Below are positions 1,218 through 63,100 of a stretch of DNA of 63,261 nucleotides, piece by piece. Below the pieces are notes generated by a model. That model made no database searches, was not told where the DNA came from, and saw only the letters and a list, made by a program, of their open reading frames with translations. The position numbers were made by a program, and so were the translations under genes. Position 1 is the first letter of the stretch. Each line of letters starts with the position of its first letter. Source of the DNA: an uncultured bacterium (GTDB taxonomy: Bacteria; Auribacterota; Erginobacteria; Erginobacterales; Erginobacteraceae); contig CAKZYZ010000333.1 of assembly GCA_937885075.1 (NCBI GenBank), forward strand, positions 1-63,261, read 5' to 3'.

Positions 1218-1407
1218 AACATCGAACGTCGAACGCCGAACTTCGAACGTCGAACGACGCATTGGCTTTGAGCGGGGGCAGACAGAGGGATAAAGGCTGA
1301 ACTTCGAATGTCGAACGACGCATTGGCATAGAGCATCGGCAGACAGCGAATTAAAGGCTGAACGTCGAACGTCCAACTTCGAACTTCGAACTTCGAACGT
1401 TGAAAGG
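1218..1407 (+). repeat. Family A (TCGAAC heptamer words) with tandem M2 modules
   Basis: Arm L1 at 1218-1259, then two ~62-nt units AAAGGCTGAAC..GTCGAACGACGCATTGGC(A/T)..GAGC..GGCAGACAG, then a further word run up to the 4HB gene. Confidence 0.85.
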
Positions 1408-1420
1408 AAAAGAAGCTAAG

Positions 1421-1789
1421 ATGAATGATGATAGGAAGTATGATTTAGAAGAGAGACTTTTGGAATATGCCGCGATGATTATCCGTCTGGTCGACCGGCT
1501 GCCGAAAACCCGGGCCGGGAATCATGTCGCTGGTCAGTTGCTGCGATCGGGGACCTCGCCTCTTCCTAATCATGGAGAGGCACAGGCTGCGGAGTCAGCT
1601 CGAGATTTTGTGCATAAATTCAAAGTATGTTTGAAAGAGTTGCGCGAGTCAAAGAGATGGCTTAGATTGATAAAAAGAGTTCCCTTAATAGAGCCAGTAT
1701 CTTCTATAGATTCGCCGATCCATGAGACAGAAGAATTAATAAAAATCTTTGTGAGCAGTATCAAGACGGTACAGCGAAGGGAAGAATGA
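1421..1789 (+). CDS. Four-helix-bundle protein (23S rRNA intervening-sequence protein family)
   Basis: The ORF track gives 1400-1789 (TTG). An in-frame ATG at 1421 gives MNDDRKYDLEERLLEYA... The pattern AGNHVAGQLLRSGTS..NHGEAQAAESARDFVHKFKVCLKELRESKRWL resembles the four-helix-bundle/S23-IVS family. This is recognised from memory, not searched. Confidence 0.75.
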   Translation: MNDDRKYDLEERLLEYAAMIIRLVDRLPKTRAGNHVAGQLLRSGTSPLPNHGEAQAAESARDFVHKFKVCLKELRESKRWLRLIKRVPLIEPVSSIDSPIHETEELIKIFVSSIKTVQRREE

Positions 1790-2078
1790 ACATCGAACAT
1801 CGAACGCTCAACTTCGAACTTCGAACGAGCGGTCCCTGGCCGCCGGCTGAATCTTCGGTTTTTTTCGCCTTCAAAACTCTCCTGCCTGAGTCCATTCGCT
1901 GTTCAGTCGTTGAGCAGTTGCCAGGTTAAATACCCGCGCCACCGAGCCAGCCGAAGTTCGACGTTCGAAGTTGAGCGTTCGACGTTCGATGTTCATTTTT
2001 TAGTTTTTAGCCGCTCGGAGCCTAAAGCCAATGCGATCGTTCGACGTTCGAAGTTGAGCGTTCGATGTTCGATGTTCA
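1787..2078. repeat. Family A inverted repeats downstream of the 4HB gene
   Basis: L2 (1787-1827, starting in the TGA stop) versus R2 (2038-2078) matches 40/41 as a reverse complement. R1 (1951-1994) is the reverse complement of L1 (1218-1259) at about 38/42. Confidence 0.9.
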
Positions 2079-2090: not shown

Positions 2091-4334
2091 ATGATCCTTC
2101 CTTCTCCCCAAAACAACAGCACTCACGCCGAGGTGATCCTGAACCTCAAGGCCGATCTCTGCCTCACCTACACAGTCCCGGAAGAATTAATCCGCCGCCT
2201 GCGGGTTGGACACATGGTCCTGGTCCCTCTGGGCTCCCGCCGGGTGAATGGCTTTGTTACGCTCTTCCCCGCTCCTCCTCCCCGGCGCCCGGGCAGGTCG
2301 ATTATCCGCTTGCTTGACCCGGAACCATTCTTTGGAGATAACCTTATCTCATTGGTACGCTGGATCTCCCAGTATTACTTCTGTTCATTTTCCCGGGCGT
2401 TCAAGACCGCGCTTCCCTCTCCGATCAGGAATACCAGTAATCCATCCCCGGTTCTCCATGTCGCCCTTAATATCTCGGTGGAGGAATCCGGAGAAGAGAT
2501 AGAGAAGTTGGCCGGAAAGGCCCCGCGCCAGGCCGATATACTGAAGGTTCTCCAGGGGAGGACCGGGACCAGCCCGCTCGCGGCCGTTCTGAAGGAATCC
2601 GGGGCGTCCCGGAGTTCATTGACCGCGCTGGAGAAGAAAGGACTGGTAGTCATAAGCCAGGAGGATAGATATACCTCCGGAAGACCGGGCGAAGAGATAC
2701 TGCCTACCGGTCCTCTTGTTCTCAATGATGAACAGAAAGTCGCCTTCAAAGAGATCGTTGACGCAATCGATAATGAGGAGTTCAGGGTATTCCTCCTCCA
2801 CGGGATTACCGGGAGCGGAAAGACCGAGATATATCTCCAGGCGGTCGCCCGGGTGCTGGAGCGGGGGGAGGGAGCGATTATCATGGTCCCGGAGATATCC
2901 CTCACTCCGCAGACCGGGGAACGGTTCCGGTCCCGGTTTGGAGACCAGGTAGTTGTTATCCACAGCGCCCAGGCGGCGGGTGAGCGTTATTCCGCCTGGC
3001 GCCGGTTGGCTGATGGTCGGGCCCGGATTGTCCTCGGGCCCCGTTCCGCTGTCTTCGCTCCGGTAAAAAATCTGGGGTTGATAGTTGTCGATGAAGAGCA
3101 TGAGACTTCATATAAGCAGTCCGCGATCCATCCGTTTTATCATGGCCGCGATGTGGCGGTGATGCGGGGGAAACTGGAGAATTGCCCGGTAATTTTAGGG
3201 TCGGCCACGCCGTCAGTGGAGAGTTATAACAATCAGCGGGAGGGGAAGTATTCTCTCCTGACTCTCTCCCATCGTCCCGATGAGGCGGAACTCCCGAAGG
3301 TCAGGATTATTGATATGCGTCTCGAGCGGGAGAAGTTCCGCGGCGGGAGTTCCTTCTCTTCTATTCTTCTTCGAGAGATGAAGCTGAACCTGGAGGAGGG
3401 AAGGCAGACAATCCTCTTTTTAAACCGGAGAGGTTTCTTTACCGTCCTGGTCTGCCGGGAATGCGGATATGTCGCCCGGTGCCCGCATTGCAGTGTCTCT
3501 CTCACCTACCATAAAGGCAAACGTTTGCAGATATGCCATCTCTGCGGTTATACCGCTGCCCCGGACCGGAGCTGCCCGCTCTGCAAGTCGAAAGATATCA
3601 CCTTCTCCGGGAGGGGAACCCAGAGGATAGAAGAGCAGATAAAGAAGATATTTCCCCAGGCCCGGGTTCGGAGGATGGATACCGACTCGGTCGGCGCCAG
3701 GGATTCTCATCGGATTATACTTGATGAATTCAAAGCGGGCCGGATTGATATTCTGGTCGGTACCCAGATGATCGCTAAGGGACTGGATTTTCCCAATGTG
3801 ACCCTGGTCGGTGTGATCATGGCCGATACCGCGCTCTCCCTCGCGGATTTTCGGGCCACCGAGTACACCTTCCAGATCCTTTCCCAGGTCGGCGGTCGGG
3901 CGGGGAGGGGGGAACTGAAAGGGACGGTTATTATCCAGACCAATTCCCCCCGCCATCCCGCCCTTCTCTCCGCGGTCCGGCACGATTACGCTGCTTTCTT
4001 CGATCAGGAGATCGCTCTCCGGGCCGAACTGGGATATCCCCCTCTCAATCACTTCATCAGCCTGACGGTTCTCTCCCGCAACGAAGATAAGAGTCTCCGG
4101 ATCTGCGAGCATCTTGCCCGCCTCTTAAGGCCCGTGATGGCCCCGGAAGATGAGATCATGGGCCCGGCTCCACCCCCGATCAACCGGATCAGGGGAAGAT
4201 ACCGCTGGCAGCTCCTCTTAAAGACTCACGGGGTGGTATCCACTCTCAGGGCTCTGGGTCAGGTGCTGCCCGGACTGGGAAAAGACCGGGACGTTAAAAT
4301 TGAAGTGGATGTCGATCCCATTTCCATGCTCTGA
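2091..4334 (+). CDS. priA: Primosomal protein N' (replication restart helicase PriA)
   Basis: 747 aa. Walker A GITGSGKT, DEEH box (VVDEEHE), and the Cys-rich zinc region CRECGYVARCPHCSVSLTYH..CHLCGY..CPLC. Confidence 0.95.
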   Translation: MILPSPQNNSTHAEVILNLKADLCLTYTVPEELIRRLRVGHMVLVPLGSRRVNGFVTLFPAPPPRRPGRSIIRLLDPEPFFGDNLISLVRWISQYYFCSFSRAFKTALPSPIRNTSNPSPVLHVALNISVEESGEEIEKLAGKAPRQADILKVLQGRTGTSPLAAVLKESGASRSSLTALEKKGLVVISQEDRYTSGRPGEEILPTGPLVLNDEQKVAFKEIVDAIDNEEFRVFLLHGITGSGKTEIYLQAVARVLERGEGAIIMVPEISLTPQTGERFRSRFGDQVVVIHSAQAAGERYSAWRRLADGRARIVLGPRSAVFAPVKNLGLIVVDEEHETSYKQSAIHPFYHGRDVAVMRGKLENCPVILGSATPSVESYNNQREGKYSLLTLSHRPDEAELPKVRIIDMRLEREKFRGGSSFSSILLREMKLNLEEGRQTILFLNRRGFFTVLVCRECGYVARCPHCSVSLTYHKGKRLQICHLCGYTAAPDRSCPLCKSKDITFSGRGTQRIEEQIKKIFPQARVRRMDTDSVGARDSHRIILDEFKAGRIDILVGTQMIAKGLDFPNVTLVGVIMADTALSLADFRATEYTFQILSQVGGRAGRGELKGTVIIQTNSPRHPALLSAVRHDYAAFFDQEIALRAELGYPPLNHFISLTVLSRNEDKSLRICEHLARLLRPVMAPEDEIMGPAPPPINRIRGRYRWQLLLKTHGVVSTLRALGQVLPGLGKDRDVKIEVDVDPISML

Positions 4335-4578: not shown

Positions 4579-5049
4579 ATGACTGATAGCGAGAAAGAAA
4601 GAGACGGGATCCTCCTGGAGCAAATGAACATTAAATTTGATATACTCGTAGAAGGTCACCAAGCTGGCAGAAAAGAGACAAAAAAATTTGCGGATGAAGC
4701 CCGAGAAAGACATGATAAACTAGAGAAACAATTGTCGATGGTTGCTAAGAACTTAAGTGAACAGATTACTGGCAACCGGGAAGAGATAGGAAAGAACCGG
4801 GAAGCCATCACATCGGTGGATAAGAAGGTGGACCGGAACCGGGAAGCCATCGAACAGAACCGGGAAGCCATCACATCGGTGGATAAGAAGGTGGACCGGA
4901 ACCGGGATGCCATCGAACAGAACCGGGAAGCCATCACATCGGTGGATAAGAAAGTTGACAGGAACTGGGAACGGATTGATGAGCATGACCGGAAGATGGG
5001 CTGGTTTGTCGAAAAGTCAGAAGACCACGAGCAGAGAATTCCTGTCTAA
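4579..5049 (+). CDS. Hypothetical coiled-coil protein with 21-aa tandem repeats
   Basis: AAGGAG SD 6 nt upstream of the ATG. Contains three copies of NREAITSVDKKVDRNR(E/D)AIEQ. No family recognised. Confidence 0.6.
   Translation: MTDSEKERDGILLEQMNIKFDILVEGHQAGRKETKKFADEARERHDKLEKQLSMVAKNLSEQITGNREEIGKNREAITSVDKKVDRNREAIEQNREAITSVDKKVDRNRDAIEQNREAITSVDKKVDRNWERIDEHDRKMGWFVEKSEDHEQRIPV
4795..4980 (+). repeat. 63-nt tandem repeat (~2.9 copies) inside CDS 4579-5049
   Basis: AACCGGGAAGCCATCACATCGGTGGATAAGAAGGTGGACCGG.. restarts at 4795, 4858 and 4921. Confidence 0.9.
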
Positions 5050-5400: not shown

Positions 5401-5652
5401 AGAAAGAAGTTAAAAGTGCCTAAAGTGCGCTTCCGCCGTCACCAAGGCTATGGCGGATAAAAAAGTGCCTTCCTCCGTCGCTAAAGCTTCCGCCTTCGTC
5501 AAGACTATGGCGCACAGGATGGCGGATAGGAAAAGTTGTTCGCCTTCGCCTGGCTTTTTCAGCTCCTCGTTTGCTTCACTTTACCCCTAATGCCGCCATG
5601 TCGGGTTAGGTGATAACTTTCAACTTTAGGCACTTTAGCGCACTTAAGGCAC
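5401..5652. repeat. Family F palindromic element (CTTTAGGCA/CTTTAGCGCA words) abutting the cdd remnant
   Basis: Left end AGAAAGAAGTTAAAAGTGCCTAAAGTGCGC (5401-5430). Right arm GATAACTTTCAACTTTAGGCACTTTAGCGCACTTAAGGCAC (5612-5652). The interior holds M1-like CTATGGCGG motifs. Confidence 0.85.
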
Positions 5653-5847
5653 TACAGAACATTGCCAGAGCGAAGCGATGGCTATGTTCATATGCTTGCC
5701 ATAATGGCACATCAGGGTAATATCCCCCGGAACTGTGCCATAATTACACGGTCAGTTCAGCATTCCAGGGCATAGGTTAATTTAAGAGATCTATATTACT
5801 CCCTAACTTATAGGCAGTTGTAAATAATAATTTATTTTTCCTGATGT

Positions 5848-7884: not shown

Positions 7885-7995
7885 ATCAGGATATCAGGGA
7901 ATCAGGATACCAGAATATCAGGATATCAGGGGATCAGGCCAGGCTTGGCTAACCTGATATCCTGATCCCCTGATATCCTGATTATCTGATATTCT
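7885..7995. repeat. Family C word-palindrome (RNATCAGG octamers)
   Basis: The left arm (7885-7937) starts at the base after the dnaK stop. Centre CCAGGCTTGGCTAA. Right arm of CCTGAT words at 7953-7995. Confidence 0.9.
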
Positions 7996-11444: not shown

Positions 11445-11525
11445 AACAGTAATCTGTAATCGGTTATCAGTAATCGGTAAAACACACTGGCTCACCGTTT
11501 ACTGATCACTGCTTACCGATTACCT
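11445..11525. repeat. Hybrid B/D word-palindrome between convergent comF and the sugar transferase gene
   Basis: Left arm ACAGTAATCTGTAATCGGTTATCAGTAATCGGTAAA. Right arm CCGTTTACTGATCACTGCTTACCGATTACC, which mixes GCTTAC (B) and GATTAC (D) words. Confidence 0.85.
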
Positions 11526-17257: not shown

Positions 17258-17502
17258 ATGGGGGATGAAAAAGTTAAAAGTGCCTAAAGTGCACTAAAGT
17301 GCCTAAAGTTGTTCGCCTGCGTAGTTAACATAGGCAGTGAGCAGAAATCAGAGGCAACAATTAACATAAATCCGTGGACTTAAAAGGGGGCGAGGCAGGG
17401 GGGCGGAAATACTGAACATCGAACGAGAAAGGCCGAGGTCGGGGGAATATTCAGTGAAAATCCGTGAAATCCGTGGACTTAAAAAGGGGCCGAGGTCGGG
17501 GG
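17258..17502 (+). repeat. Mosaic: family F left arm + two I/G-rich modules
   Basis: GTGCCTAAAGTGCACTAAAGTGCCTAAAGTTGTTCGCC (17279-17316). AATCCGTGGACTTAAAAGGGGGCGAGGCAGGGGGG (17369-17402). AATCCGTGAAATCCGTGGACTTAAAAAGGGGCCGAGGTCGGGGG (17459-17502). Confidence 0.8.
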
Positions 17503-18534: not shown

Positions 18535-18698
18535 ACAGTGAGCAGTGAATAAACGGTAAGCAGTAAGCAGTTAGCGGTGAGCAGTGAATAAACGGTAAGC
18601 AGTTAGCAGTGAGCAGTAGGCCGCCGACGGCGACCTGGCGGCCACAGCTTACTGCTTACTGCTCACTGCTTACCGTTTATTCACTGCTCACTGCTTAC
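18535..18698. repeat. Family B word-palindrome (GTAAGCR/GTGAGCR heptamers)
   Basis: Left arm 18535-18617 with an internal ~42-nt duplication. Centre AGGCCGCCGACGGCGACCTGGCGGCCACA. Right arm 18648-18698, ending 9 nt before the rfbD ATG. Confidence 0.9.
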
Positions 18699-18707
18699 TA
18701 TATCTTC

Positions 18708-21721: not shown

Positions 21722-22245
21722 ACGTTCAACCAGCCTCCGCCAAGGCCCCGAAACAAGTTCGGGATGCAAGCACTATGGCGGGCAGTGCGTTCAACTTTCA
21801 ACCAGCCTTCGCTAAAGCTATGGCGGGCAAGGCGTTCAACATTCAACGACAGACAGATGATACAGATGAACATCCAACGTCGAACGCCGAACTTCGAACA
21901 TCGAACGTCGCAAGACAAAGCATTCCCCGGTATAAGAAGCTTAACTTTCAAACGTCTAAAGTCCAGCTTCACGAGATATTAATAATAAAAAGCGAATAAC
22001 GAACCGCAGAACATCGAATATCGAATGTCGAAGTAAAAGAAGCCTAGGCGAGGCAACTTCGACATTCGGAGTTCGGAGTTCGATATTCGAAATTCGACTC
22101 TAATAGGGGCCGAGGTGGGGGGAGTTTCAACCAGAAAAAGTGATAACTTTAAATCAGGACTTGAGCAAGATGAAGGATGCCTGCCGGGTAAAAGCGAATA
22201 ACTTTAGGCACTTTAGCGCACTTTAGGCACTTTCAACTTTCTAAA
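21712..22245. repeat. 538-bp mosaic of modules (A words, M1 x2, M3, G-rich, F arm)
   Basis: AAAGGCTGAAC contains the pepP stop. One M1 is split by M3 (21729-21795) and one M1 is intact (21801-21835). A words at 21868-21910. A small A palindrome at 22009-22096. GGGGCCGAGGTGGGGGG at 22106-22122. F arm at 22185-22240. Confidence 0.85.
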
Positions 22246-23615: not shown

Positions 23616-24241
23616 TGGACCACTCCTCTTTACCGGGAGAATTAGATAGGGGAATGAAGATGGAAAAACAGATTATTTTAGCTCTGGAAGAAGGCGCGCG
23701 GCTCGGGGAAAAGTTGAAGGAGTTGGCCCCTGAGATTGCTAAAGCGTCCCGGATGATTATTGACTGTCTCAGTTCCGGGGGGAAGGTGATGATCTGCGGC
23801 AATGGCGGGTCCGCCGCTGACTCCCAGCACATCGCCGCCGAGCTGGTGGGGCGTTTCAAGAGAGAGAGAAGAGCTCTGGCGGCAATAGCGCTCACTACCG
23901 ACAGTTCGATACTGACCTCACTGGCGAATGATTACTCCTTTGATCGAGTATTCAGCCGTCAGGTGGAAGCGCTGGGATCTTCGGGTGATATGTTGATCCT
24001 GATCTCCACCAGCGGGAACTCGGTTAATCTGGTTGAAGCCGCCCGGGTAGCTAAAGGGAGAGGGATAGTGACAATGGCTCTCTTAGGAAGAGATGGAGGC
24101 AAAGTTGTCGGAGAGGTGGATTTCTCAATTGTTGTCCCTTCGTCCGATACCGCTCGGATTCAGGAAGGGCATATGCTTATATATCATATTATCTGTGATC
24201 TGGTGGAGGAAGAGATGGCGGGGAAAGATAGTAATCAGTAA
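23615..24241 (+). CDS. gmhA: D-sedoheptulose-7-phosphate isomerase (SIS domain)
   Basis: ICGNGGSAADSQHIAAEL..ISTSGNS. The ATG overlaps the pfk stop (TAATG). Internal ATGs at 23654/23660 are alternative starts. Confidence 0.9.
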   Translation: MDHSSLPGELDRGMKMEKQIILALEEGARLGEKLKELAPEIAKASRMIIDCLSSGGKVMICGNGGSAADSQHIAAELVGRFKRERRALAAIALTTDSSILTSLANDYSFDRVFSRQVEALGSSGDMLILISTSGNSVNLVEAARVAKGRGIVTMALLGRDGGKVVGEVDFSIVVPSSDTARIQEGHMLIYHIICDLVEEEMAGKDSNQ

Positions 24242-24301
24242 ACAGTGATCAGTAATCAGTATGGCTATGCCTGTCCAACCGATTACTGCTTACTGATTAC
24301 C
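24229..24301. repeat. Family D word-palindrome (GTAATCA/GTGATCA/GTAAACA heptamers)
   Basis: The left arm ATAGTAATCAGTAAACAGTGATCAGTAATCAGT contains the gmhA stop. Centre ATGGCTATGCCTGTCCAA. Right arm CCGATTACTGCTTACTGATTACC. Confidence 0.9.
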
Positions 24302-24890: not shown

Positions 24891-26183
24891 ATGACTATAA
24901 TATCAGAAGCAAAGAAAGGAAACGTACCGGAACCGGTAGCAATAGTAGCCCGTGAGGAGGGTGTTCCTCCGGAAGATATTCTCAAAGGTCTGGTGGATGG
25001 AACAATTGTGGTTCCTTCTAACCGCGTACGCCCTATCGATCAGCCCTGTGGAATCGGTCAGGGGCTCAGGGTCAAGATCAACGCTAATCTGGGAACTTCA
25101 CAGCAGGAGATCGATTATGACGGAGAGATAGAGAAGCTGAAAGTCGCTATCTCCGCCGGAGCGGATACCGTAATGGACCTCTCGACCGGCGGCGATATCA
25201 ATTTGCTCCGGGAAAAAGTCCTGCTTACCTCCAGCGTGCCGGTCGGAACTGTTCCGATCTATGAAGCCGCGGTGAAAGCCAGCGAGGAGAAGGGAAAGAT
25301 AGTGGCAATGACCGGAGACGATATGCTGGCGGCGGTAGAGAATCAAGCCCGACAGGGGGTTGATTACATGACCATTCACGCCGGAGTTACTCTCCGGACC
25401 ATGGAGGTTCTGAAAAATTCTCCCAGGTTGCTCGGGGCGGTCAGCCGGGGAGGTTCATTTCTGCTGGAATGGATGATTGTCAACGGGAAGGAGAATCCGT
25501 TCTTTGAACGTTTTGATGAACTGCTCGATATAGTCCGGCGTTACGAGATTACTCTCAGTCTCGGCGATGGGATGCGTCCGGGATGTCTGGCCGATGCCAC
25601 GGATCGTCCCCAGATTCAGGAACTTATTTTTCTGGGAGAACTGGCGGCCCGCTGCCGGGAAGCTGAGGTCCAGGTGATGATCGAGGGGCCGGGGCATATC
25701 CCCCTCAACCAGATCGCCGAGAATATTCGGCTGGAGAAATCTCTCTGCCAGGGCGCTCCCTTCTATGTCCTGGGACCGCTGGTAACCGATGTCGCCCCGG
25801 GATATGACCATATCACCTGCGCCATCGGGGGAACTCTGGCCGCCTACCTGGGCGCGGATTTTCTCTGCTATGTTACTCCGTCCGAGCACCTGGGCCTGCC
25901 GTCAGTAGATGACGTAAAAGCCGGCGTGATAGCCACGCGGATCGCGGCTCATGCCGCTGATGTCGCCCGAGGCTTACCCGGTGCCCGTGATTGGGATGAC
26001 AGGATGTCGCGATTCCGCCAGGCCAGGGATTGGAAGGGGCAGGTGGCGACCGCGATTGATCCGGAGAAGGCAAGGTCGTATCTGGGAGAACTGGAAGATA
26101 AGGAAGATTACTGTTCGATGTGCAGTGAGTACTGCGCGATTAAAATTTTGGATGAGTACCTGGGTGGGGGCGGGAAGCAGTGA
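24891..26183 (+). CDS. thiC: Phosphomethylpyrimidine synthase ThiC
   Basis: 430 aa. ..MDLSTGGD..TIHAGV..GIVSRGG-like..C-terminal CSMCSEYC cluster. The last codons and stop lie in a family-B arm. Confidence 0.95.
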   Translation: MTIISEAKKGNVPEPVAIVAREEGVPPEDILKGLVDGTIVVPSNRVRPIDQPCGIGQGLRVKINANLGTSQQEIDYDGEIEKLKVAISAGADTVMDLSTGGDINLLREKVLLTSSVPVGTVPIYEAAVKASEEKGKIVAMTGDDMLAAVENQARQGVDYMTIHAGVTLRTMEVLKNSPRLLGAVSRGGSFLLEWMIVNGKENPFFERFDELLDIVRRYEITLSLGDGMRPGCLADATDRPQIQELIFLGELAARCREAEVQVMIEGPGHIPLNQIAENIRLEKSLCQGAPFYVLGPLVTDVAPGYDHITCAIGGTLAAYLGADFLCYVTPSEHLGLPSVDDVKAGVIATRIAAHAADVARGLPGARDWDDRMSRFRQARDWKGQVATAIDPEKARSYLGELEDKEDYCSMCSEYCAIKILDEYLGGGGKQ

Positions 26184-26301
26184 GCAGTTAGCAGTGAGCA
26201 GTAAGCAGTAAGCTGTGCCCCGGTCGGCGACCGCTTACCGCTTACTGTTTACCGCTTACAGTTTTACAGCTTACAGCTTACCGCTCACTGCTTACCGTTA
26301 C
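26175..26301. repeat. Family B word-palindrome
   Basis: The left arm AAGCAGTGAGCAGTTAGCAGTGAGCAGTAAGCAGTAAGC begins in the last two thiC codons. Centre TGTGCCCCGGTCGGCGAC. The right arm (26232-26301) is longer than the left. Confidence 0.9.
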
Positions 26302-27715: not shown

Positions 27716-27850
27716 GGTGAAAGCGAACAACTTTAGGCACTTTAGCGCACTTTAGGCACTTATAACTTCTTTCTACTTTAGGCACTTTTCCGCCAGAGGC
27801 GGATCAGCCTCTGGCTGAAGCGCATTTCAAACTTTAGGCACTTATAACTT
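27716..27850. repeat. Family F array (right-arm orientation only) with an internal 9-bp perfect hairpin
   Basis: GGTGAAAGCGAACAACTTTAGGCACTTTAGCGCACTTTAGGCACTTATAACTTCTTTCT.. GCCAGAGGC-GGATCA-GCCTCTGGC .. AACTTTAGGCACTTATAACTT. Confidence 0.85.
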
Positions 27851-28379: not shown

Positions 28380-28523
28380 CTTCGCAAGTTTTTTTGCCAC
28401 TAAGACACAAAGACACAAAGAAAATATTTCAAGATGCAATAACAACGTTTTTTATTCTTTCCTAAGGTTTTCTTAGTGTCTTTGTGCCTTTGTGGCAGAT
28501 TTATTGGAATTTCGGAGCAGGGA
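28373..28523 (+). mobile_element. Family G MITE-like element, copy 2
   Basis: AACTTAGCTTCGCAAGTTTTTTT + GCCACTAAGACACAAAGACACAAAG .. CTTAGTGTCTTTGTGCCTTTGTGGC + AGATTTATTGGAATTTCGGAGCAG. The interior is about 80% identical to copy 5. Confidence 0.8.
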
Positions 28524-29283: not shown

Positions 29284-29580
29284 AGGAAAGTAATCAGTAA
29301 ACAGTGATCAGTAATCAGTAGAAAAGCAAATAAACAGTAATCAGTACCGAAGGAAAGTAATCAGTAAACAGTGGTCAGTAATCAGTACCGAAGGAAAGTG
29401 ATCAGTAATCAGTACAGCTACGCTTGGCCAACTGATCACCGATTACCGATTACCGATCACCGATTACCGATCACCGATCACCGATCACCAATCACCGAGT
29501 ACTGATTACTGATCACCGATTACTGATCACCAGTTACAGGTTACCTTTCAAATCGTCCTGTCCCAAAATCGTCTTGTCAG
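29284..29580. repeat. Largest family D word-palindrome (arms ~130 and ~115 nt) followed by reverse H words
   Basis: Left arm 29284-29414 (units GGAAAGTAATCAGTAAACAGTGRTCAGTAATCAGTACCGAA). Centre AGCTACGCTTGGCCAA. Right arm 29432-29546 (CCGATCACCGATTACC..). Then AAATCGTCCTGTCCCAAAATCGTCTTGTCAG. Confidence 0.9.
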
Positions 29581-30554: not shown

Positions 30555-30700
30555 ATCTGCATCAAAATGTGAATAAAATTGCCACAAAGGCACTAAGACA
30601 CTAAGGAATAAACAGGAAATAAGAAAAACGTAGTTATTACATCGGTAATTCTTTTATTTGTGTCTTTGTGACTTAGTGGCAAAAAATTGCGAAGCTAAAT
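30555..30700 (-). mobile_element. Family G MITE-like element, copy 3
   Basis: GCCACAAAGGCACTAAGACACTAAGG .. TTTGTGTCTTTGTGACTTAGTGGC + AAAAAATTGCGAAGCTAAAT. Ends 5 nt before the pgpH ATG. Confidence 0.75.
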
Positions 30701-30705: not shown

Positions 30706-32958
30706 ATGATCAAGATATCATTTAAAAAGAAAGGGGAAGATGGCCGCCCCCGGAGCAAGAAGAGGAAGGTAGCCGAGGGGGGGAAGATCGCCCGGGCATT
30801 GGAGAGCGGTATCTCCGGGAGATGGGCATTGGGGGCGGGTATCTTCATCGCAAGCGTTTTAATCATCTCCTGGCGGGGTATGCCACTGGATATTCCAATT
30901 ATCGGCCAAATCTCCGAGCGTGATGTTGCGGCAACCTGTTCCTTTTCATTCCCTGACCGGATTAAGACCGAGCAGGCCCGGGATATAGCCGAGGACCATC
31001 AGCCGGTTGCCTATCTGGTTGTTCAGACCGTTTTAGAGGAGAAGGGAAATGCCTTGCGGCATTTCTTCCGCCGGTTATCGGGAGAATCAATACCCGTTAA
31101 GGCTCCTCCGCTGGATCTGGTATTAATCCCCCCGGATCGGCTTCTGCGAGATTATTTAAATACTGTTATTCCCCGGCCGTGGGAAGAAAAATTCCTTCAC
31201 ATCCTGGAAGACGCGTATCGCAATGGCATCCTTACCTCTGATATTAAGCGGACGCTCTCTAATACTCGCCAGGATGAGATCATGCTGGTTAATCCAGGAA
31301 CGAACGAAGATCGGATAATCTCGATCTCCGAAATCCCCGAACTCTCATCCTGCCGGGCTGCCGTGGCAAAGCAGGTGGAAGATAATATTGTGATGGGAGG
31401 GAGTGCTGTAGACGGACTGGGAGAAGTTATCCGGTGGTTCATCGAGCCCGACCTTGAATTTGATCTGGAGAAGACGGAAGCACTGAGATCGTCCGCCCGG
31501 AGCGATATCCCGGTTATTATGACTGAGGTAAGGAAAGGCGAGAAGATTATCCGCCAGGGGGAGGAGGTCCGGTCGATTCATATCCAGAAATTTCGTTCCT
31601 ATCAGGAGCAGCTCTTCCGGCTTGAACCGCCGATCTCATTACTGTATTATGCGCTTGGAAATGGTCTTCTGGTCGCTCTTTTATTTATAATTGCTATCTA
31701 CTATCTGGATCATTATCATCGGGAGATCAGCCGGAGTAATTCCCGGTTGCTTCTTATCTCAACAGTGATAGTTCTGGTTCTTCTCCTGACCCGTCTGCTC
31801 CGCCAGGCCTTCTGGCATCTTCCCCCCGGGATGATGGAGTTTACCCGCTATATATCGCCGGTGACAATTGGAACGATGCTGCTCTGCTTGCTGGTCAGTG
31901 TGCGGGTAGCGATATTTTTTACGCTGATTCTCTCTCTTCTCATCGGCCTTATTCTTGGGGGCGGACCAGGGTACATAGTTGTGGTGATTATCGGGTCAAT
32001 TGCCGGGATCTTCGGGCTGAGCGGTGCCCGGAGGAGGATTGACCTCTTTCGGGCCGGACTGATCTCGGCCGCGGCTGGTTTTCTGGCGGTGGCCGGACTG
32101 GGAGTTGCCGGAGGGTTAGGACTGACCGTATTTATTGTTCAGGGGATTGGTGCTGCTTCCGCCGGAATCCTCTCGGCATTTTTTACGCTGATTGCTCTGG
32201 GATTATTTGAGTCTCTCTTCCGGATCTCTTCGGATATTGGTCTTCTGGAACTCTCCGATCTCAATCATCCGCTTCTGCGCCGGTTGATGATCCGGGCGCC
32301 CGGGACATATCATCACGGCCTGATGGTGGCAACTCTGGCGGAAGGTGCCGCCGAAGAGATCGGTGCCAACGCGTTGCTGGCCAGGATCGGGGCATATTTT
32401 CATGATATCGGCAAGATCACGAAGCCGGAATATTTCTCTGAGAACGAGACCTCAGGATTTAGCCGGCATGATGCCCTGATCCCGAGCATGAGTAGTCTGA
32501 TTCTGATCGCCCATGTGAAGGAAGGGGTGGATCTGGCCCGCCAGTACAAACTGGATCGCCGGATTGTCGCTATTATCCAGCAGCATCACGGGACCAGTCT
32601 GATTTCCTGTTTTTATGACCGGGCCGGGAGGAATCACCAGCTGAAGTTTGATGTTATGGAAAAAGATTACCGGTATCCCGGTCCCCGGCCGAAGAGCCGG
32701 GAAGCGGCAATTGTCATGATGGCCGATGCCGTGGAAGCAGCCTCGACCTCCCTGGATCGGCGTACTCCCAGCCGGTTGGAATCTCTGGTTGAAAATATTA
32801 TTCGGGAGCGTTTTTCCGATGGACAGTTGGATGAATGCAGATTGACCATGGTGGATCTGAGAAAGATCGGAGAGAGCTTTGTCCGACTGCTATCGGCGAG
32901 ATATCATACCAGGGTTAAGTATCCGGAGGTGGGGAATGGGGGGGGGGGTAAGCAGTGA
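30706..32958 (+). CDS. pgpH: 7TM-HD membrane phosphohydrolase (PgpH/YqfF family)
   Basis: Extracellular N-domain, 7 TM helices, and a C-terminal HD domain (HHGLMVA..FHDIGK..HH). The ORF-track start at 30658 lies inside family-G copy 3. The last codons and stop lie in a family-B arm. Confidence 0.9.
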   Translation: MIKISFKKKGEDGRPRSKKRKVAEGGKIARALESGISGRWALGAGIFIASVLIISWRGMPLDIPIIGQISERDVAATCSFSFPDRIKTEQARDIAEDHQPVAYLVVQTVLEEKGNALRHFFRRLSGESIPVKAPPLDLVLIPPDRLLRDYLNTVIPRPWEEKFLHILEDAYRNGILTSDIKRTLSNTRQDEIMLVNPGTNEDRIISISEIPELSSCRAAVAKQVEDNIVMGGSAVDGLGEVIRWFIEPDLEFDLEKTEALRSSARSDIPVIMTEVRKGEKIIRQGEEVRSIHIQKFRSYQEQLFRLEPPISLLYYALGNGLLVALLFIIAIYYLDHYHREISRSNSRLLLISTVIVLVLLLTRLLRQAFWHLPPGMMEFTRYISPVTIGTMLLCLLVSVRVAIFFTLILSLLIGLILGGGPGYIVVVIIGSIAGIFGLSGARRRIDLFRAGLISAAAGFLAVAGLGVAGGLGLTVFIVQGIGAASAGILSAFFTLIALGLFESLFRISSDIGLLELSDLNHPLLRRLMIRAPGTYHHGLMVATLAEGAAEEIGANALLARIGAYFHDIGKITKPEYFSENETSGFSRHDALIPSMSSLILIAHVKEGVDLARQYKLDRRIVAIIQQHHGTSLISCFYDRAGRNHQLKFDVMEKDYRYPGPRPKSREAAIVMMADAVEAASTSLDRRTPSRLESLVENIIRERFSDGQLDECRLTMVDLRKIGESFVRLLSARYHTRVKYPEVGNGGGGKQ

Positions 32959-33085
32959 GCGGTGAGCAGTAAGCGGTAAGCAGTGAGCAGTAAGCGGTAA
33001 GCAGTTAGCGGGGAGCATTCGGCGTAGCCTCGCCAGCGACACCGCTTACCGCTTACTGTTTACTGCTTACCACTTACCACTTACT
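32947..33085. repeat. Family B word-palindrome
   Basis: The left arm GGTAAGCAGTGAGCGGTGAGCAGTAAGCGG.. starts in the last pgpH codons. Centre GGGGAGCATTCGGCGTAGCCTCGCCAGCGACA. Right arm 33042-33085. Confidence 0.9.
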
Positions 33086-34495: not shown

Positions 34496-34630
34496 CTTCG
34501 CAACTTTTTTGCCACTAAGACACTAAGACACAAAGAAAATAAGAGATGTAATATCTCCATTATTCTTTTTATTATTATTTCTTAGTGCCTTTGTGTCTTT
34601 GTGGCAGAGTTATTAAAATTCCGAAGACGA
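34493..34630 (+). mobile_element. Family G MITE-like element, copy 4
   Basis: TTTAACTTCGCAACTTTTTT (contains the recO TAA) + GCCACTAAGACACTAAGACACAAAG .. CTTAGTGCCTTTGTGTCTTTGTGGC + AGAGTTATTAAAATTCCGAAGACG. Ends 5 nt before the glyQ ATG. Confidence 0.8.
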
Positions 34631-34635: not shown

Positions 34636-35487
34636 ATGATTGATTTTCAGACTTTAATATTAACTTTGCAGGAATATTGGAAAGATCAGGGCTGTGTTCT
34701 GGTTCAGCCGTATGATCTTGAAGTAGGCGCCGGTACTTTCGCACCGCCGACTTTTTTCGGTGTTCTGGGTCCGGATCCCTGGAAGGTAGGGTATGTCCAA
34801 CCTTCCCGCCGCCCTTCGGACGGACGTTATGGGGAAAATCCCAATCGCCTCTACCAGCACCATCAATATCAGGTTATCCTGAAGCCTGCCCCGGAGAAGA
34901 TTCAGGATATCTATCTAGACAGTCTGAAAATACTGGGGATTAATTTTCAGAGGCATGACATCCGTTTTGTTGAGGATGATTGGGAGTCGCCTACTCTGGG
35001 AGCTTCCGGCCTGGGCTGGGAGGTGTGGTGTGACGGACTGGAGATAACCCAGTTTACCTACTTTCAGCAGATGGGCGGTTTTGAATTGGACCCGGTTCCG
35101 GTTGAGCTGACTTACGGGTTAGAGCGAATCGCTATCTTCCTGCAGGGAGTTGATAACGTCTTCGATCTTGAGTGGGCTCCCGGCGTAAGCTATAGACAGA
35201 TGCGGAAGAGGCAGGAATACGAATTCTCCCGTTACAGTTTTGAGGAAGTACCGGTTGAGGAGTACCGCGATCTCTTTACCCGATTTGAAAAGGAGTCCAC
35301 TGATATTCTCCAGTCCGGCCTGGTATATCCCGCCTATGAGTTGGTTCTTAAGTGTTCCCATATATTCAATCTCCTCGACGCCCGCGGGGCGATCAGTGTA
35401 AGTGAGAGAGCGAATTATATCGGTCGGATCCGGAAGCTGGCCAAGGGATGCGCTGAACTGTATACTCAAAAAAGACAGGACGATTAG
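34636..35487 (+). CDS. glyQ: Glycine--tRNA ligase alpha subunit
   Basis: [38 protein letters not shown]. The ORF-track start at 34585 lies in family-G copy 4. Confidence 0.96.
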
Positions 35488-35800
35488 GGGCAGGATTATT
35501 TGGGCAGGACTATTACAGGCAGGACGATTACAGACTGAACGTCGAACCAGCCTTCGCTAAAGCTATGGCAGGCAGGCTGTCCAACATCGAATGACGGAGA
35601 ACACAGATAAAGACTGAACATTTGCTTGCATCCCGAATATTTCGGGGCAACGTTCAACGTTCAACGCTCAACTTTCAACATTCAACCACACGAAACAATC
35701 AGTGTAAATTAGTGTAATTAGTGGACAGAAAAGCCGCCAATCCGAGGCGAAATAATCAGAGTAATCTGTGTAATCCGTGGACAAAAAAGGGGGGGAGGCA
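35475..35800 (+). repeat. Mosaic separating glyQ from glyS (H words, A words, M1, M3, module I, G-rich module)
   Basis: CAGGACGATTAGGGGCAGGATTATTTGGGCAGGACTATTACAGGCAGGACGATT starts inside glyQ. M1 at 35546-35575. M3 GCTTGCATCCCGAATATTTCGGGGCAA at 35615-35649. TTCAAC words follow. Module I at 35688-35790. GGGGGGGAGGCAGGGGG follows. Confidence 0.85.
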
Positions 35801-37982: not shown

Positions 37983-38119
37983 GGTAAGCAGTAAGCGGTG
38001 AGCGGTAAGCAGTAGGCTGCGCATTGGCAGTGACTGCTTACTGCTTACCGCTTACCGCTTACTGTTTACTGCTTACCGCTTACCGCTCACTGTTCACCGC
38101 TTACCGCTTACTGCTTACC
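37983..38119. repeat. Family B word-palindrome, strongly asymmetric
   Basis: Left arm 37983-38013 (31 nt). Centre AGGCTGCGCATTGGCAGTGA. Right arm 38034-38119 (86 nt). Confidence 0.9.
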
Positions 38120-41263: not shown

Positions 41264-42136
41264 ATGCCTTCCCCTCCCTCCAACGGAAGTTCTAATTTGA
41301 CTCCGGACCGGAAAGTCCGGGCTATCAGGATCTACCTTCGGGAGATCGGGGCGATCCCTCTCTTAAGCAGAGAAGAAGAGATTAAGCTGGCTGAGAAGTT
41401 CGCCCGGGGTGATGAAGAGGCCCGCCGTCAGCTGATCCGTGCCAATCTTCGGCTGGTAGTCAAGATATCCAAGAAGTATGAGCATCTGGGACTCCCCTTA
41501 CTGGATCTGATTGAAGAGGGGAATCTTGGCCTGGTCAAGGGAGTGGAGAGGTATGATTTAAGTAGGGGGACCAAGGTGAGTACTTATGCCGCCTGGTGGA
41601 TAAAACAGTCGATAATGCGGGCCCTGGCCAACAAAGGCAAGATAATCCGCATCCCTGTCTATATGCAGGAGAGGGTCAACTCATTCAGGCGGAAAGTTGG
41701 TGAGTTGAGTCAGAAACTGGGGCGCCAACCATCCCACCAGCAGATCTCAAAAGAGTTGGATATGACCCTTGAAGAAATAGATTATCTGAATGAAGTTGCC
41801 CGTGTCCCCAGTTCATTGGATGCCGCCATTGACCATGATGGGTTCAGCAAGCTGGCTGATATGATTCAGGATACCAACTCTCCCGCCCCGGATGAGATAG
41901 TGGATACAGCCGACCTTCACCGGGATCTGCTTGGATTGATCCAGTTACTCCCTCCGCGGGAGATTAAAATTCTTCAGATGAGATTCGGGTTGGATGGGGA
42001 GGAATCCCGGACGCTCTCCTACATAGGCAATGAGTTCGGTATCAGCCGGGAACGGGTGCGGCAGATCATCAATAAGTCCAACCGCAGACTCAGGAATACT
42101 CTCCGGGAACGGGATGAGGGGGACGGAAGGAAGTAA
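41264..42136 (+). CDS. RNA polymerase sigma-70 family factor (regions 1.2-4)
   Basis: IYLREIG..LLSREEE, NLRLVVKISKKY, DLIEEGNLGLVKGVERYD, STYAAWWIKQSI, C-terminal HTH GISRERVRQI. Confidence 0.9.
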   Translation: MPSPPSNGSSNLTPDRKVRAIRIYLREIGAIPLLSREEEIKLAEKFARGDEEARRQLIRANLRLVVKISKKYEHLGLPLLDLIEEGNLGLVKGVERYDLSRGTKVSTYAAWWIKQSIMRALANKGKIIRIPVYMQERVNSFRRKVGELSQKLGRQPSHQQISKELDMTLEEIDYLNEVARVPSSLDAAIDHDGFSKLADMIQDTNSPAPDEIVDTADLHRDLLGLIQLLPPREIKILQMRFGLDGEESRTLSYIGNEFGISRERVRQIINKSNRRLRNTLRERDEGDGRK

Positions 42137-42217
42137 TCAGTAATCGGTTATCGGTAATCAGTACGCCTCACTTTGGTAACCAGGCCAACTGATTACCGAT
42201 TACCGTTTACTGATTAC
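42131..42217. repeat. Family D word-palindrome
   Basis: The left arm AAGTAATCAGTAATCGGTTATCGGTAATCAGT contains the sigma-factor stop. Centre ACGCCTCACTTTGGTAACCAGGCCAA. Right arm CTGATTACCGATTACCGTTTACTGATTAC. Confidence 0.9.
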
Positions 42218-42274
42218 TTTCTCCTTTAAATTGTCTTGTCAAATAAGTTATAAAGTTAAGCTAAGGAGGCCAGA

Positions 42275-45974: not shown

Positions 45975-46125
45975 TTGATCGGTCGGATCCGACCGATCCG
46001 ACTGATGCTCAGCTCTTAACGCCGGTCCACTCCCCACCGCCTGTTGCTCTTTGCCAATGCGTCGTTCGACGCCGTGCCCGCCATAGCTTTAGCGACGGCT
46101 GGTTCGAAGTTCGACGTTGAAAGTT
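45975..46125 (-). repeat. Mosaic between the Spt-like and GNAT genes (E, M2, M1, A modules)
   Basis: Perfect 22-bp palindrome GATCGGTCGGATCCGACCGATC (45977-45998). GCCAATGCGTCGTTCGACG is the reverse complement of M2. CCCGCCATAGCTTTAGCG is the reverse complement of M1. TTCGAAGTTCGACGTTGAAAG are A words. Confidence 0.85.
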
Positions 46126-46131
46126 CAGATT

Positions 46132-51636: not shown

Positions 51637-51637
51637 A

Positions 51638-51787
51638 GGGGATCAGGTTATCAGGAGATCAGGTTATCAGGAGATCAGGTTATCAGGAGATCAGGGGATC
51701 AGGTTATCAGGAGATCAGGGGATCAGGGTATCAGGAGATCAGGCGAGGCATTCTACCTGATAACCTGATCCCCTGATATCCTGATTA
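51638..51787. repeat. Family C word-palindrome between the molybdoenzyme L and S genes; 13 versus 4 octamers
   Basis: Left arm 51638-51743 = 13 tandem (G/T/A)(G/T/A)ATCAGG octamers. Centre CGAGGCATTCTA. Right arm 51756-51787 = 4 CCTGAT words. Confidence 0.9.
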
Positions 51788-55128: not shown

Positions 55129-55283
55129 AACTTAGCTTCGCAACTTTTTTGCCACTAAGACACTAAGACACAAAGAAAAGATTTAAAGATGCAATAACAA
55201 CGTTTTTTTATATTTCTTGAGTTTTTCTTAGTGTCTTTGTGCCTTTGTGGCGGATTTATTTATATTCCGAAGCAGTAAAGTAT
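55129..55283 (+). mobile_element. Family G MITE-like element, copy 5
   Basis: GAACTTAGCTTCGCAACTTTTTT + GCCACTAAGACACTAAGACACAAAGAAAAG .. TTTTTCTTAGTGTCTTTGTGCCTTTGTGGC + GGATTTATTTATATTCCGAAGCAG. Confidence 0.8.
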
Positions 55284-56346: not shown

Positions 56347-56440
56347 GTGAAAAGGTAAGCAGTAAACAGTAAGCGGTAAGCGGTTGGCCAGTTGCTTTTA
56401 CCGCTTACTGCTAACCGCTTACCGCTCACTAGCTTTTCAC
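56347..56440. repeat. Family B word-palindrome between argC and argJ
   Basis: GTGAAAAG + GTAAGCAGTAAACAGTAAGCGGTAAGCGG, centre TTGGCCAGTTGCTT, then TTACCGCTTACTGCTAACCGCTTACCGCTCAC + CTTTTCAC. Confidence 0.9.
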
Positions 56441-57688: not shown

Positions 57689-57715
57689 TTATTTTTTTCC
57701 GGAGGAAAAAAATAA
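57689..57715. repeat. AT-hairpin family copy between argJ and argB
   Basis: TTATTTTTTTCC-GGA-GGAAAAAAATAA. A GGAGG SD sits at the loop/stem junction, and the last stem A is the A of the argB ATG. Confidence 0.85.
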
Positions 57716-58596: not shown

Positions 58597-58860
58597 GGAA
58601 TGGGGAGTGGGGAGTAGGGAGTGGGAGGCAAAGCACCGTGCTCGGCAAAAAATGAAATATTCAACCAGTCGCTGCCAAGGTCATGGCGGCCCAGGCGTCG
58701 AACTTTCAACATCGAACTTCGAACATCGAATGTCGAATGAGAAAAGCGACTAAGTCTAGGCGAAACAATTAGTGTGAATTAGTGTAATTAGTGGACAGCA
58801 AAGCCGCCCCGCCGAGGCGAAGCAATCAGAGTAATCTGTGTAATCCGTGGACAAAAAAAG
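58596..58860 (+). repeat. Mosaic between argB and argD (AGTGGGG words, degenerate M1, A words, module I copy 2)
   Basis: AATGGGGAGTGGGGAGTAGGGAGTGGGAGG. ACCAGTCGCTGCCAAGGTCATGGCGGCCCAGGCG. TCGAAC words at 58697-58739. Module I at 58759-58860 is about 88% identical by eye to 35688-35790. Confidence 0.85.
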
Positions 58861-58875
58861 GTAAGGAATAAAACG

Positions 58876-60066: not shown

Positions 60067-60070
60067 AGGG

Positions 60071-60183
60071 AAATCAGTAATCAGTGATCGGTAATCAGTT
60101 GGCCCGGTGCCCGGTTGCCTGGTTAGGTTACTGATAACTGATTACCGTTTACTGATTACTTTTTTTAAATTACCGATTACTGT
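60071..60183. repeat. Family D word-palindrome between argD and argG
   Basis: Left arm AAATCAGTAATCAGTGATCGGTAATCAGT. Centre TGGCCCGGTGCCCGGTTGCCTGGTTAGG. Right arm TTACTGATAACTGATTACCGTTTACTGATTAC, with an extra TTACCGATTACTG. Confidence 0.9.
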
Positions 60184-60201
60184 TCAAGAAGGAGTAAACT
60201 G

Positions 60202-61618: not shown

Positions 61619-61628
61619 TAGGAGGAAT

Positions 61629-63011: not shown

Positions 63012-63100
63012 AGACCGAACGTTCAACTCTCAACTTTCAACTTTCAAAGGCACAGGCTGGCATAGAGCAACAGTCCGATCAGTCGGGTCCGACCGATCCG
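63008..63100 (+). repeat. Mosaic after argH (A' TTCAAC words + M2-like centre + E words)
   Basis: GATAAAGACCGAACGTTCAACTCTCAACTTTCAACTTTCAA contains the argH stop. Then GGCTGGCATAGAGCAACAG, then TCCGATCAGTCGGGTCCGACCGATCCGTCCGAT. The two arms are not complementary. Confidence 0.8.

Follow-up and report, generated by a model that had tools for sequence, protein, structure and literature searches.

A four-helix-bundle gene framed by inverted heptamer arrays in the UDG-priA spacer of an uncultured bacterium: a non-rRNA variant of the IVS-type element

Four-helix-bundle (4HB) proteins of the S23p type have been known since the 1990s and are represented by two crystal structures; to our knowledge, no function has been established for them. 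In the intervening sequences (IVSs) of the 23S rRNA of Leptospira, Coxiella burnetii and Brucella, an open reading frame (ORF) of this family (PF05635/TIGR02436) lies in sense in the loop of a long stem. In this study, a locus of the same layout was characterized in DNA of an uncultured bacterium (contig CAKZYZ010000333.1, 63,261 nt; this whole stretch is referred to as the window), whose DnaK shares 89% identity with the DnaK of Candidatus Euphemobacter frigidus (Candidatus Auribacterota, PVC group). Here the 4HB gene occupies the spacer between the uracil-DNA glycosylase (UDG) gene and priA. The window contains no rRNA, in agreement with an earlier note on this DNA that had placed the locus outside rRNA, and the locus is a non-rRNA variant of the known IVS-type element.

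Parallels are also offered by systems from outside the family. The REP-associated tyrosine transposases (RAYTs) are HUH/Y1 transposases, and repetitive extragenic palindromes (REPs) are single imperfect palindromes. TRAP is a beta-sandwich 11-mer that binds (G/U)AG repeats, and its fold is unrelated to the 4HB.

The 23S IVS of Coxiella has a 28-bp terminal stem whose 5' part contains tandem heptamers, 3-4 GACAGAT units before the S23p ORF. The first of these repeats is the site of the RNase III cut, and the heptamers were regarded by the authors as a detail that varies among strains (PMC4990558). Heptamer repeats have also been described independently of this protein family. TAACTGA arrays occur in Beggiatoaceae, Cyanobacteria and Bacteroidetes, and a post-transcriptional regulator has been proposed for them (MacGregor 2015, PMC4679880); GGGAATC / GGGGA(T/C)T heptamers are found in Xanthomonas and Nostoc, and heptamers are over-represented in bacteria (PMC4692102). 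Like the arrays of the window, these repeats and the short tandemly repeated repetitive (STRR) sequences of cyanobacteria are intergenic, have few copies, recur at many loci per genome and are oriented with transcription. The TAACTGA and GGGAATC papers differ from the present case in describing no associated protein and no cassette of inverted arrays (PMC4679880, PMC4692102).

The UDG gene (354-1175, +) and priA (2091-4334, +) bound a 915-bp spacer with one ORF (1421-1789, +, ATG to TGA, 122 aa), and all three genes lie on the + strand. The features of the spacer, with tandem arrays delimited by Tandem Repeats Finder (TRF), are:

1206-1211: A-run before the outer left array
1217-1259, + strand: outer left array L1, TAACATC GAACGTC GAACGCC GAACTTC GAACGTC GAACGAC; TRF period 7, 5.6 copies
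1232-1353, + strand: two copies of a 61-nt module, each a short heptamer run plus a GCATTGGC.TAGAGC..GGCAGACAG spacer; direct repeat of 80%, TRF period 61
1359-1404, + strand: inner left array, 6.4 heptamers (TRF), ending 16 nt before the start codon
1421-1789, + strand: 4HB gene, 122 aa, TIGR02436 / PF05635
1782-1831, + strand: forward array L2; overlaps the stop codon TGA and forms the 5' side of the inner hairpin
1842-1866, + strand: small GC hairpin followed by T7, in the loop of the inner hairpin; intrinsic-terminator-like by pattern match only
1951-2001, - strand: reverse-complement array R1 with TTTTTT after it; forms the 3' side of the inner hairpin
2034-2085, - strand: reverse-complement array R2, forming the 3' side of the outer stem; 5 nt separate its end from the start codon of priA (2091)

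The arms, which the earlier note had taken for simple palindromes, proved to be tandem-repeat arrays. Every arm is built of GAACNTC heptamers (family A) in 5.6-6.4 copies (TRF); three forward arrays (1217-1259, 1359-1404, 1782-1831) and two reverse-complement arrays (1951-2001, 2034-2085) frame the locus, and a short additional forward array lies at 1299-1319. The inverted pairing of L1 with R1 and of L2 with R2 described in the same note was recovered by repeat search: 1210-1255 and 1956-2001 are 89% complementary over 46 nt, and 1782-1831 and 2034-2083 are 94% complementary over 50 nt. Its observation that the four arms are mutually similar also held, since the crossing pairs (1209-1257 with 2037-2085, 90%; 1782-1826 with 1956-2000, 93%) are as good as the nested ones. 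L1 thus has inverted-repeat partners at 1956-2001 and at 2037-2085, and R2 is 93% identical to R1 as a direct repeat.

When the stretch 1190-2100 was folded as RNA, the z-score against shuffled sequences was -11.2. The predicted outer stem joins 1209-1279 with ~2012-2085, including the spacer of the first 61-nt module, which pairs with 2010-2037; the inner hairpin joins 1782-1831 with 1951-2001, and the ORF lies in a large loop. The ORF is therefore enclosed in sense by stem-forming terminal inverted repeats (TIRs; arms of 46-50 nt, 89-94% complementary), as in an IVS. The locus differs from the 23S rRNA elements in its position, an mRNA spacer and not helix 25 or 45 of 23S rRNA, and in its arms, which have greater length and more copies (three forward arrays and two reverse ones, in addition to the 61-nt modules). 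The inner left array occupies the position usual for the left array in homologous cassettes. A promoter scan of the cassette returned a weak consensus match alone, overlapping the start codon.

The membership of the ORF in the 4HB / 23S-IVS family, proposed in the earlier note from the letters, was confirmed by profile and fold. Matches above cut-off were obtained with PF05635 (23S_rRNA_IVP; E 1.9e-9, 38.1 bits, cut-off 33.8) and TIGR02436 ('four helix bundle protein'; E 4.5e-21, 75.1 bits, cut-off 24); these were the only family HMM matches, with none to HUH/Y1 transposases, and neither the PADLOC defence-system library nor the PHROGs phage library gave a match. An AlphaFold2 model built with 38 homologues (pLDDT 93.2) has helices at residues 9-25, 31-55, 60-86 and 93-121. 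Its best Foldseek matches are two solved family members, 2RLD (TM 0.80/0.90) and 2GSC (Xcc0516; TM 0.82/0.85), which a sequence profile also found in the PDB at E 2.3e-42 and 2.4e-20. The conserved family motif GxxRxxxSxxxNxxE (PMC3936711) is present as R42-x3-S46-x3-N50-x2-E53, with the Gly one residue farther off (G38); in the homologue alignment, R, S, N and Q vary little or not at all.

Both 2RLD and 2GSC contain five chains, and Xcc0516, from Xanthomonas campestris (PMC4990558, PDB title), is a homopentameric toroid (PMC4990558). By likeness to these structures and to Avd, the accessory protein of diversity-generating retroelements (DGRs), the window protein is probably a ring oligomer. 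The kinship with Avd that the earlier note had mentioned stands at the level of the fold, a four-helix bundle forming a pentameric ring (Foldseek matches to 4DWL and 8UBE chain D, TM 0.61-0.68, probability 0.99, E 0.17-0.38), and fails at the level of sequence, where the profile did not retrieve Avd. Avd and PF05635 belong to one CDD superfamily, and PF05635 is the commonest Pfam near DGRs (PMC10053308). The window gene differs from Avd genes in having tandem arrays and in adjoining neither a reverse transcriptase nor template/variable repeats; no reverse transcriptase was found among the called neighbours in the window locus (UDG, PriA) or in related loci.

Compared with the 94%-identical orthologue of a relative, L082, the window gene gave dN = 0.025 and dS = 0.38 (dN/dS 0.066), and the ORF of 14 Desulfobacterota genomes gave a dN/dS of 0.08. 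The window gene is intact and, by these substitution rates, under purifying selection, which sets it apart from the Coxiella IVS.

The family was then sampled beyond the window. A single-sequence search gave 6816 clusters at 50% identity, and close relatives numbered in the thousands in a protein search, often on contigs of very small length; on viral contigs there were only 5. Set 1, from a scan of one genome per species, comprised 80 loci with 63-78% identical proteins from at least five phyla (Verrucomicrobiota, Desulfobacterota/Thermodesulfobacteriota, Lentisphaerota, Kiritimatiellota, Chlamydiota, Gammaproteobacteria and others). Arm statistics for this set refer to 78 evaluable loci with homologues 63-94% identical, mostly one genome per species. 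Set 2, representing a second subfamily, came from a metagenome scan with two sequences and comprised 80 loci with proteins 45-81% identical to the L058 protein and the motif SVPSNIAEG. Internal stops were rare in both sets (1/82 matches in set 1 and 2/80 in set 2).

Nearly all 80 loci of set 1 carried ~5 GAACRTC-type heptamers 40-110 nt upstream of the gene and their reverse complement 20-100 nt downstream (TRF). In a search independent of the word, inverted arms of at least 20 nt surrounded the gene in 69 of the 78 loci (median 37 nt), compared with 1-5 of ~70 loci when the 'gene' was slid by 0.9 or 1.4 kb. Set 2 behaved alike: period-7 arrays lay upstream in 54 of 66 complete loci, and arms of at least 20 nt were present in 52 of 64 (controls 0-4). 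Other 4HB homologues are thus associated with such arms in both sets, against ~3% in controls. Of the three refuting conditions named in the earlier note, two were examined (family membership and this association), and its interpretation withstood both. Array density beside the gene was 4.8/kb versus 0.54/kb elsewhere in set-1 loci (~9x) and 3.8 versus 0.35/kb in set 2. Period 7 was found in 165 of 191 arrays of set 1 and 130 of 141 of set 2, with median copy numbers of 4.9 and 4.4. Set-2 units were mostly AGTNNNN, with 42 different units in 74 loci. In a third subfamily, 9-mers CTAAAGTGN, of the pattern CTAAAGTG(C/A)N, flanked the gene in 6/6 loci examined, a Scalinduaceae genome included, in arrays of 3.3-5.5 units.

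Distant homologues (30-43% identity) on annotated plasmids showed further units:

Planktothrix: AATCCCC/AATCGTA; downstream array the reverse complement of the upstream array
Nostoc flagelliforme: ATTCAAA; downstream array the reverse complement of the upstream array
Chlorohelix: ATGAAGG; downstream array the reverse complement of the upstream array
Nostoc ATCC 53789: CAAGTCG; >30 copies downstream, the reverse complement of the upstream array
Gloeocapsa: TTTTAGA; abuts the start and stop codons, downstream array the reverse complement of the upstream array
Treponema: GAAAGNG/TCCGCTC; downstream array direct relative to the adjacent upstream array

In the Bernardetia and Pseudanabaena plasmid copies, the array layout was less clear. 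The Planktothrix unit AATCCCC is the reverse complement of GGGGATT, and CAACTGA, near-identical to TAACTGA, stands beside a 4HB paralogue of Verrucomicrobia (L010). The inverted-array layout is a rule for the protein family and not a peculiarity of the window genome.

The unit varies with the protein. Protein identity and unit distance were correlated (Mantel r = -0.76 overall and -0.40 within each set, p <= 0.0005), and at three loci that carry a pair of paralogues from different subfamilies a few kb apart, each paralogue had its own unit, which argues that the word follows the protein and not the host. The correlation shows linkage and is not by itself proof of recognition; the co-variation is consistent with the 4HB protein being the partner of the arrays, as the earlier note had supposed. 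In a literature search with incomplete coverage of subscription journals, no paper was found that ties PF05635/TIGR02436 generally to tandem arrays, the Coxiella heptamer remark excepted; with the same limit of coverage, the general link between this protein family and subfamily-specific tandem arrays is apparently undescribed.

The presence of tandem heptamers in the Coxiella stem also means that the likeness to an IVS drawn in the earlier note is real. The direction of spread that it suggested, from rRNA into mRNA spacers, is probably the reverse: none of ~175 related loci matched E. coli 23S rRNA, and the rRNA IVS looks like a special case of which the intergenic cassette is the norm.

In 14 Desulfobacterota genomes, nucleotide homology of 85-92% started at AAAAGATGAACATCGAAC... 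/ AAAAGATGAACATCGAACATCGAACGTCCAACATCGAAT and stopped at its exact reverse complement, with unrelated flanks. These sharp edges delimit a cassette of ~560 bp with heptamer-built TIRs of ~39 nt. Such a boundary was seen in one aligned group, and the window's own copy is shared with its relatives by descent. The arms had Jukes-Cantor distances of 0.08 and 0.17 against a dS of 0.445, with unalignable outside flanks; that is, the arms evolve more slowly than synonymous sites. Identical copies on three Nostoc flagelliforme plasmids were considered as boundary evidence and rejected, since they sit in larger duplicated segments. In a side observation, the cassettes of five Desulfobacterota loci (L060, L067, L068, L076, L079) were nested in a second shared inverted repeat (GGCATAAGCGCTAAGTTGTTTTTGCCCAGG upstream, CCTGTGAA.GTTTACAAAATAACTTAGCGCTTAT downstream), which suggests that either another repeat family or a target preference is involved.

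At the UDG-priA site itself, relatives with the same locus were found via DnaK and the 4HB protein. The order UDG-cassette-priA is kept in L082, L178, L179 and L180. In L082, the ORF is intact, the arrays are larger still than those of the window, and the 61-nt module is also present; in L178 and L179, the ORF is frameshifted and the arms consist of TCAACGT units; in L180, a C-terminal deletion has removed the last helix and fused the right array to the ORF. Since orthologous spacers carry it, the cassette is ancestral at this site; it is kept in the window lineage and decaying in others, and its arms change in concert on both sides. The reading frame may enter the downstream array elsewhere, too. 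In L058 (4996-5415), the C-terminal tail NYPLPTNHYPLITT derives from CACTNNN heptamers, and in L180 (5429-5743) the deletion joins the right array in frame after helix 3.

Family-A arrays also occur in the window without an ORF, at these sites:

21867-22097: arrays, forward at 21867-21912 and 22008-22034, reverse at 22058-22097; between co-directional + strand genes
35645-35688, + strand: degenerate array (CAACGTT; TRF)
46098-46127, - strand: array between two - strand genes, hence sense
58697-58741, + strand: array between the amino-acid kinase and class-III aminotransferase genes (both +)
63012-63049, + strand: degenerate array directly after the argininosuccinate lyase gene (+)

The three-unit word GAACNTCGAACNTCGAACNTC (<=3 mismatches) has 37 matches in the window versus 0.06 expected from shuffles, located at the 4HB locus and at three of these sites (21868-22096, 46098-46125, 58697-58739). 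All five sites listed in the earlier note do contain arrays; their description as palindromes did not hold, most being single forward arrays. Neither hmmsearch of six-frame ORFs nor tblastn with 53 diverse 4HB proteins found any 4HB gene or remnant in the window beyond 1421-1789, and the idea that the ORF-less palindromes are decayed cassettes found no support, no 4HB remnant lying beside any of them. The label of 'master' or cargo-bearing copy given to the locus in that note fits, as ORF and arms form a conserved unit and this is the sole 4HB ORF of the window.

Orientation was not random with respect to neighbouring genes. Among loci with both neighbours callable, the upstream neighbour was co-oriented with the 4HB gene in 48/60 (set 1) and 33/40 (set 2), and cassettes in sense between co-directional genes (+,+) outnumbered antisense ones (-,-) by 36 to 7. 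In 5/5 solo family-A arrays of the window, the GAAC strand is the mRNA sense. The co-orientation bias and the sense solo arrays together point to constraint at the transcript level. Several subfamily-3 cassettes fill operon spacers, leaving 30-60 nt on each side and thus no space for a promoter of their own. Cassettes on plasmids of Planktothrix (L083), Pseudanabaena (L086), Chlorohelix (L087) and Gloeocapsa (L089) lie between co-directional genes of defence operons (drmD-pglX, csx2-cas1, helicase-N6 methylase, DUF1156-HEPN gene), and 4HB copies within operons include CRISPR, BREX and DISARM loci. 23S_rRNA_IVP genes have been noted in cas loci (PMC3936711); cassettes in defence operons may explain this reported 'CRISPR association'.

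On balance, we lean toward the reading that the window locus is an intact copy of a widespread IVS-type cassette that works by read-through transcription, RNase III cleavage and action of the protein on the arrays. The unit would be a gene for a ~120-aa 4HB protein between inverted arrays of ~5 short tandem units, here GAACNTC. It would be transcribed in sense, largely by read-through from the upstream gene, and the inverted arrays would pair in the transcript as a 40-70 bp duplex enclosing the ORF, the topology of a 23S rRNA IVS. By analogy with Coxiella, host RNase III may cut in the heptamer stem and free the ORF RNA from the host message. The protein would be both made and needed, acting on repeat arrays as an oligomeric ring that recognizes the repeated units in single-stranded nucleic acid, in its own arms and, in trans, in ORF-less arrays of the same word across the genome. 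TRAP is a mechanistic analogue only: each subunit of its ring takes one short repeat of a single-stranded RNA, in competition with hairpin formation. The arrangement would resemble the RAYT-REP relation with a non-enzymatic binder. In both systems ('REPtrons' in the case of REP/RAYT), a gene is flanked by an inverted repeat that is also dispersed gene-free, and paralogues have repeat families of their own; they differ in that the 4HB protein has no recognisable catalytic fold and its repeats consist of 7-9 nt units arrayed in tandem. Over evolution, the cassette would insert at new intergenic sites and cross phyla.

A broader proposal is offered more tentatively, and we stop short of endorsing it. 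S23p/TIGR02436 proteins may be ring-shaped, sequence-specific binders of tandem repeats, each subfamily forming with its 7-9 nt arrays a self-propagating system that occurs across bacteria and plays a role like that of REP/RAYT; such systems might be the source of the STRR, TAACTGA and GGGAATC repeats and of the words of the window, and rRNA IVSs might be copies that landed in rRNA.

Several observations weigh against the favoured model of an IVS-type cassette. Two Auribacterota relatives have broken ORFs, and the Coxiella S23p ORF is decaying and probably untranslated (PMC4990558), so that the protein can be dispensed with. At least four other word families occur in the window as ORF-less arrays without a cognate 4HB gene, and distant arrays match the unit of the local 4HB gene modestly above chance (43% versus 23%, and 11% versus 6%). 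Co-inheritance alone could account for the way in which unit and protein vary together. The match between a pentamer and five units is so far numerology, the 9-mer arrays having 3.3-5.5 units. Arm mismatches on the sense strand showed no excess of G:U over A:C (97 versus 111 and 31 versus 58), so that selection for an RNA duplex is not visible, in a test that is weak because many mismatches stem from variable unit positions; what is conserved may be each arm on its own, either as a binding array or as a terminal repeat at the DNA level. As to mobility, neither a transposase nor a reverse transcriptase nor a nuclease is encoded in the cassette, and the aligned Desulfobacterota junctions show no duplication of a target site; what suggests movement is the boundaries and the distribution.

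We consider it unlikely that the element acts at the DNA level. The arrays would then be the TIRs of a transposon-like, non-autonomous cassette mobilized in trans by an enzyme encoded elsewhere, the 4HB protein would be an end-binding or architectural factor or cargo, and RNA stem and RNase III would be irrelevant outside rRNA. Sharp TIR-like boundaries of ~39 nt with unrelated flanks, a likeness to insertion sequences and miniature inverted-repeat transposable elements drawn from the 14 Desulfobacterota genomes, agree with it, as do the arm mismatches without G:U bias, the several diverged copies per genome, and the plasmid copies between defence and cas operon genes (cas loci also in PMC3936711). 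Such an element differs from insertion sequences in encoding no transposase; moreover, the neighbours of the sampled copies include none, and target sites showed no duplication. The sense bias and the 5/5 sense solo arrays point to a constraint on transcripts, rRNA copies are demonstrably processed as RNA (PMC4990558), and the cassette of the window locus is vertically inherited and decaying, not hopping.

It is somewhat more doubtful still that the 4HB protein is a host regulator, a TRAP-like ring that binds the upstream array in nascent RNA and blocks hairpin termination or destabilisation, with the dispersed arrays as its regulon and the flanking arrays for autoregulation. The position of the arrays in operon spacers, their sense orientation, the T-runs after hairpins (array hairpins being flanked by A- and T-runs), the narrow copy number of ~4.4-5.4 units alongside a pentameric ring, and the post-transcriptional regulator proposed for TAACTGA arrays (MacGregor 2015, PMC4679880) would all suit such a role. 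However, sharp boundaries in unrelated contexts and spread across phyla look selfish, close relatives have lost or disrupted the gene while the genes around it stayed the same, and units turn over fast in one subfamily (42 units in 74 loci).

Coincidence or slippage, by which arrays arise anywhere through replication slippage and the ORF merely lies between some of them, is effectively excluded: the window is full of short-period arrays and heptamers are over-represented in bacteria (PMC4692102), but one word flanks one protein subfamily in ~70 species of several phyla, controls reach ~3%, the arms evolve more slowly than synonymous sites, and paralogues in one genome keep different units. Least probable of all, and likewise effectively excluded, is a DGR remnant in which the ORF is an Avd accessory gene that lost its reverse transcriptase, since the likeness of fold (4DWL and 8UBE chain D, TM 0.61-0.68) and the frequency of PF05635 near DGRs (PMC10053308) are outweighed by neighbours that are UDG and PriA, a sequence profile without Avd, best matches to the non-DGR structures 2RLD and 2GSC, and the recurrence of the context without reverse transcriptase in fully sampled loci.

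Further repeats were recorded in the window. ORF-less arrays of a 9-mer (AAGTGCCTA forward, ACTTTAGGC reverse) lie at 5623-5653, 17277-17309, 22201-22233, 27730-27761, 61421-61452 and 61581-61612, the forward ones ~23 nt past gene ends and the reverse ones 17-290 nt before gene starts. The same 9-mer, AAGTGCCTA, also flanks a different 4HB subfamily in Desulfobacteraceae, Scalinduaceae and others (L059 136-489, L185, L186, L189, L191). Arrays of other heptamers were found at 11449-11480, 18556-18699, 24230-24300, 26176-26301, 29289-29531, 32948-33084, 37984-38119, 42132-42218, 56354-56426 and 60072-60160. These ~10 intergenic arrays are mostly tight palindromes of AGTAAGC/GCTTACT, AGTAATC/GATTACT and GATCACC words, which fit the AGTNNNN/GGTNNNN class flanking the second 4HB subfamily elsewhere; besides AGTAAGC, CTAAAGTGC is another repeat word of the window. 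Palindromic intergenic arrays of period 8 occupy 7885-7992, 51637-51785, 28398-28494, 30583-30678, 34513-34603 and 55153-55249, with the words ATCAGGNN/CCTGATNN (<=13 copies) and CACTAAGA/CTTTGTGC.

Two composite spacers (35476-35780 and 58596-58850) contain arrays of several words and periods side by side in the same order: the 15-mer CAGGACGATTACAGG, family-A heptamers, and the 9-10-mers AATTAGTGTA and TAATCAGTG. The block appears to have been repeated whole, as a unit. Non-heptamer modules accompany family-A arrays as well, namely GGCATAGAGCA.CGGCAGACAG and a CCAGCC..GCTATGG..GGCTGG hairpin (1260-1292, 1321-1353, 63050-63075; 35550-35583, 46080-46105; L082 4479-4960). In L082, modules and arrays are tandemly multiplied in a repeat-spacer pattern that a CRISPR finder could misread. 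Within the arginine-biosynthesis genes at 57715-63049 (amino-acid kinase, class-III aminotransferase, ..., argininosuccinate lyase), arrays are present in every spacer examined. Upstream of UDG, a separate repeat family occupies 1-350, with a 73-nt unit present twice (49-192) and GC-rich hairpins GAACCCCAACGGGGTTC at ~196-215 and 297-316. At 4774-4971, a 63-nt unit is repeated 3.1 times (91% matches) within ORF 4579-5049, which has weak Pfam matches of coiled-coil type.

The finding joins three puzzles: the function of S23p/4HB proteins, the abundance of intergenic heptamers, and the origin of ORF-bearing rRNA IVSs. Bacterial heptamer repeats gain a candidate protein partner, and protein and arrays travel jointly across phyla, with word and period tracking the subfamily. 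Copies inside operons may alter expression and confuse repeat and CRISPR finders. A collection of small proteins, every one paired with its own 7-9 nt repeat, would also be of interest in the search for programmable nucleic-acid binders.

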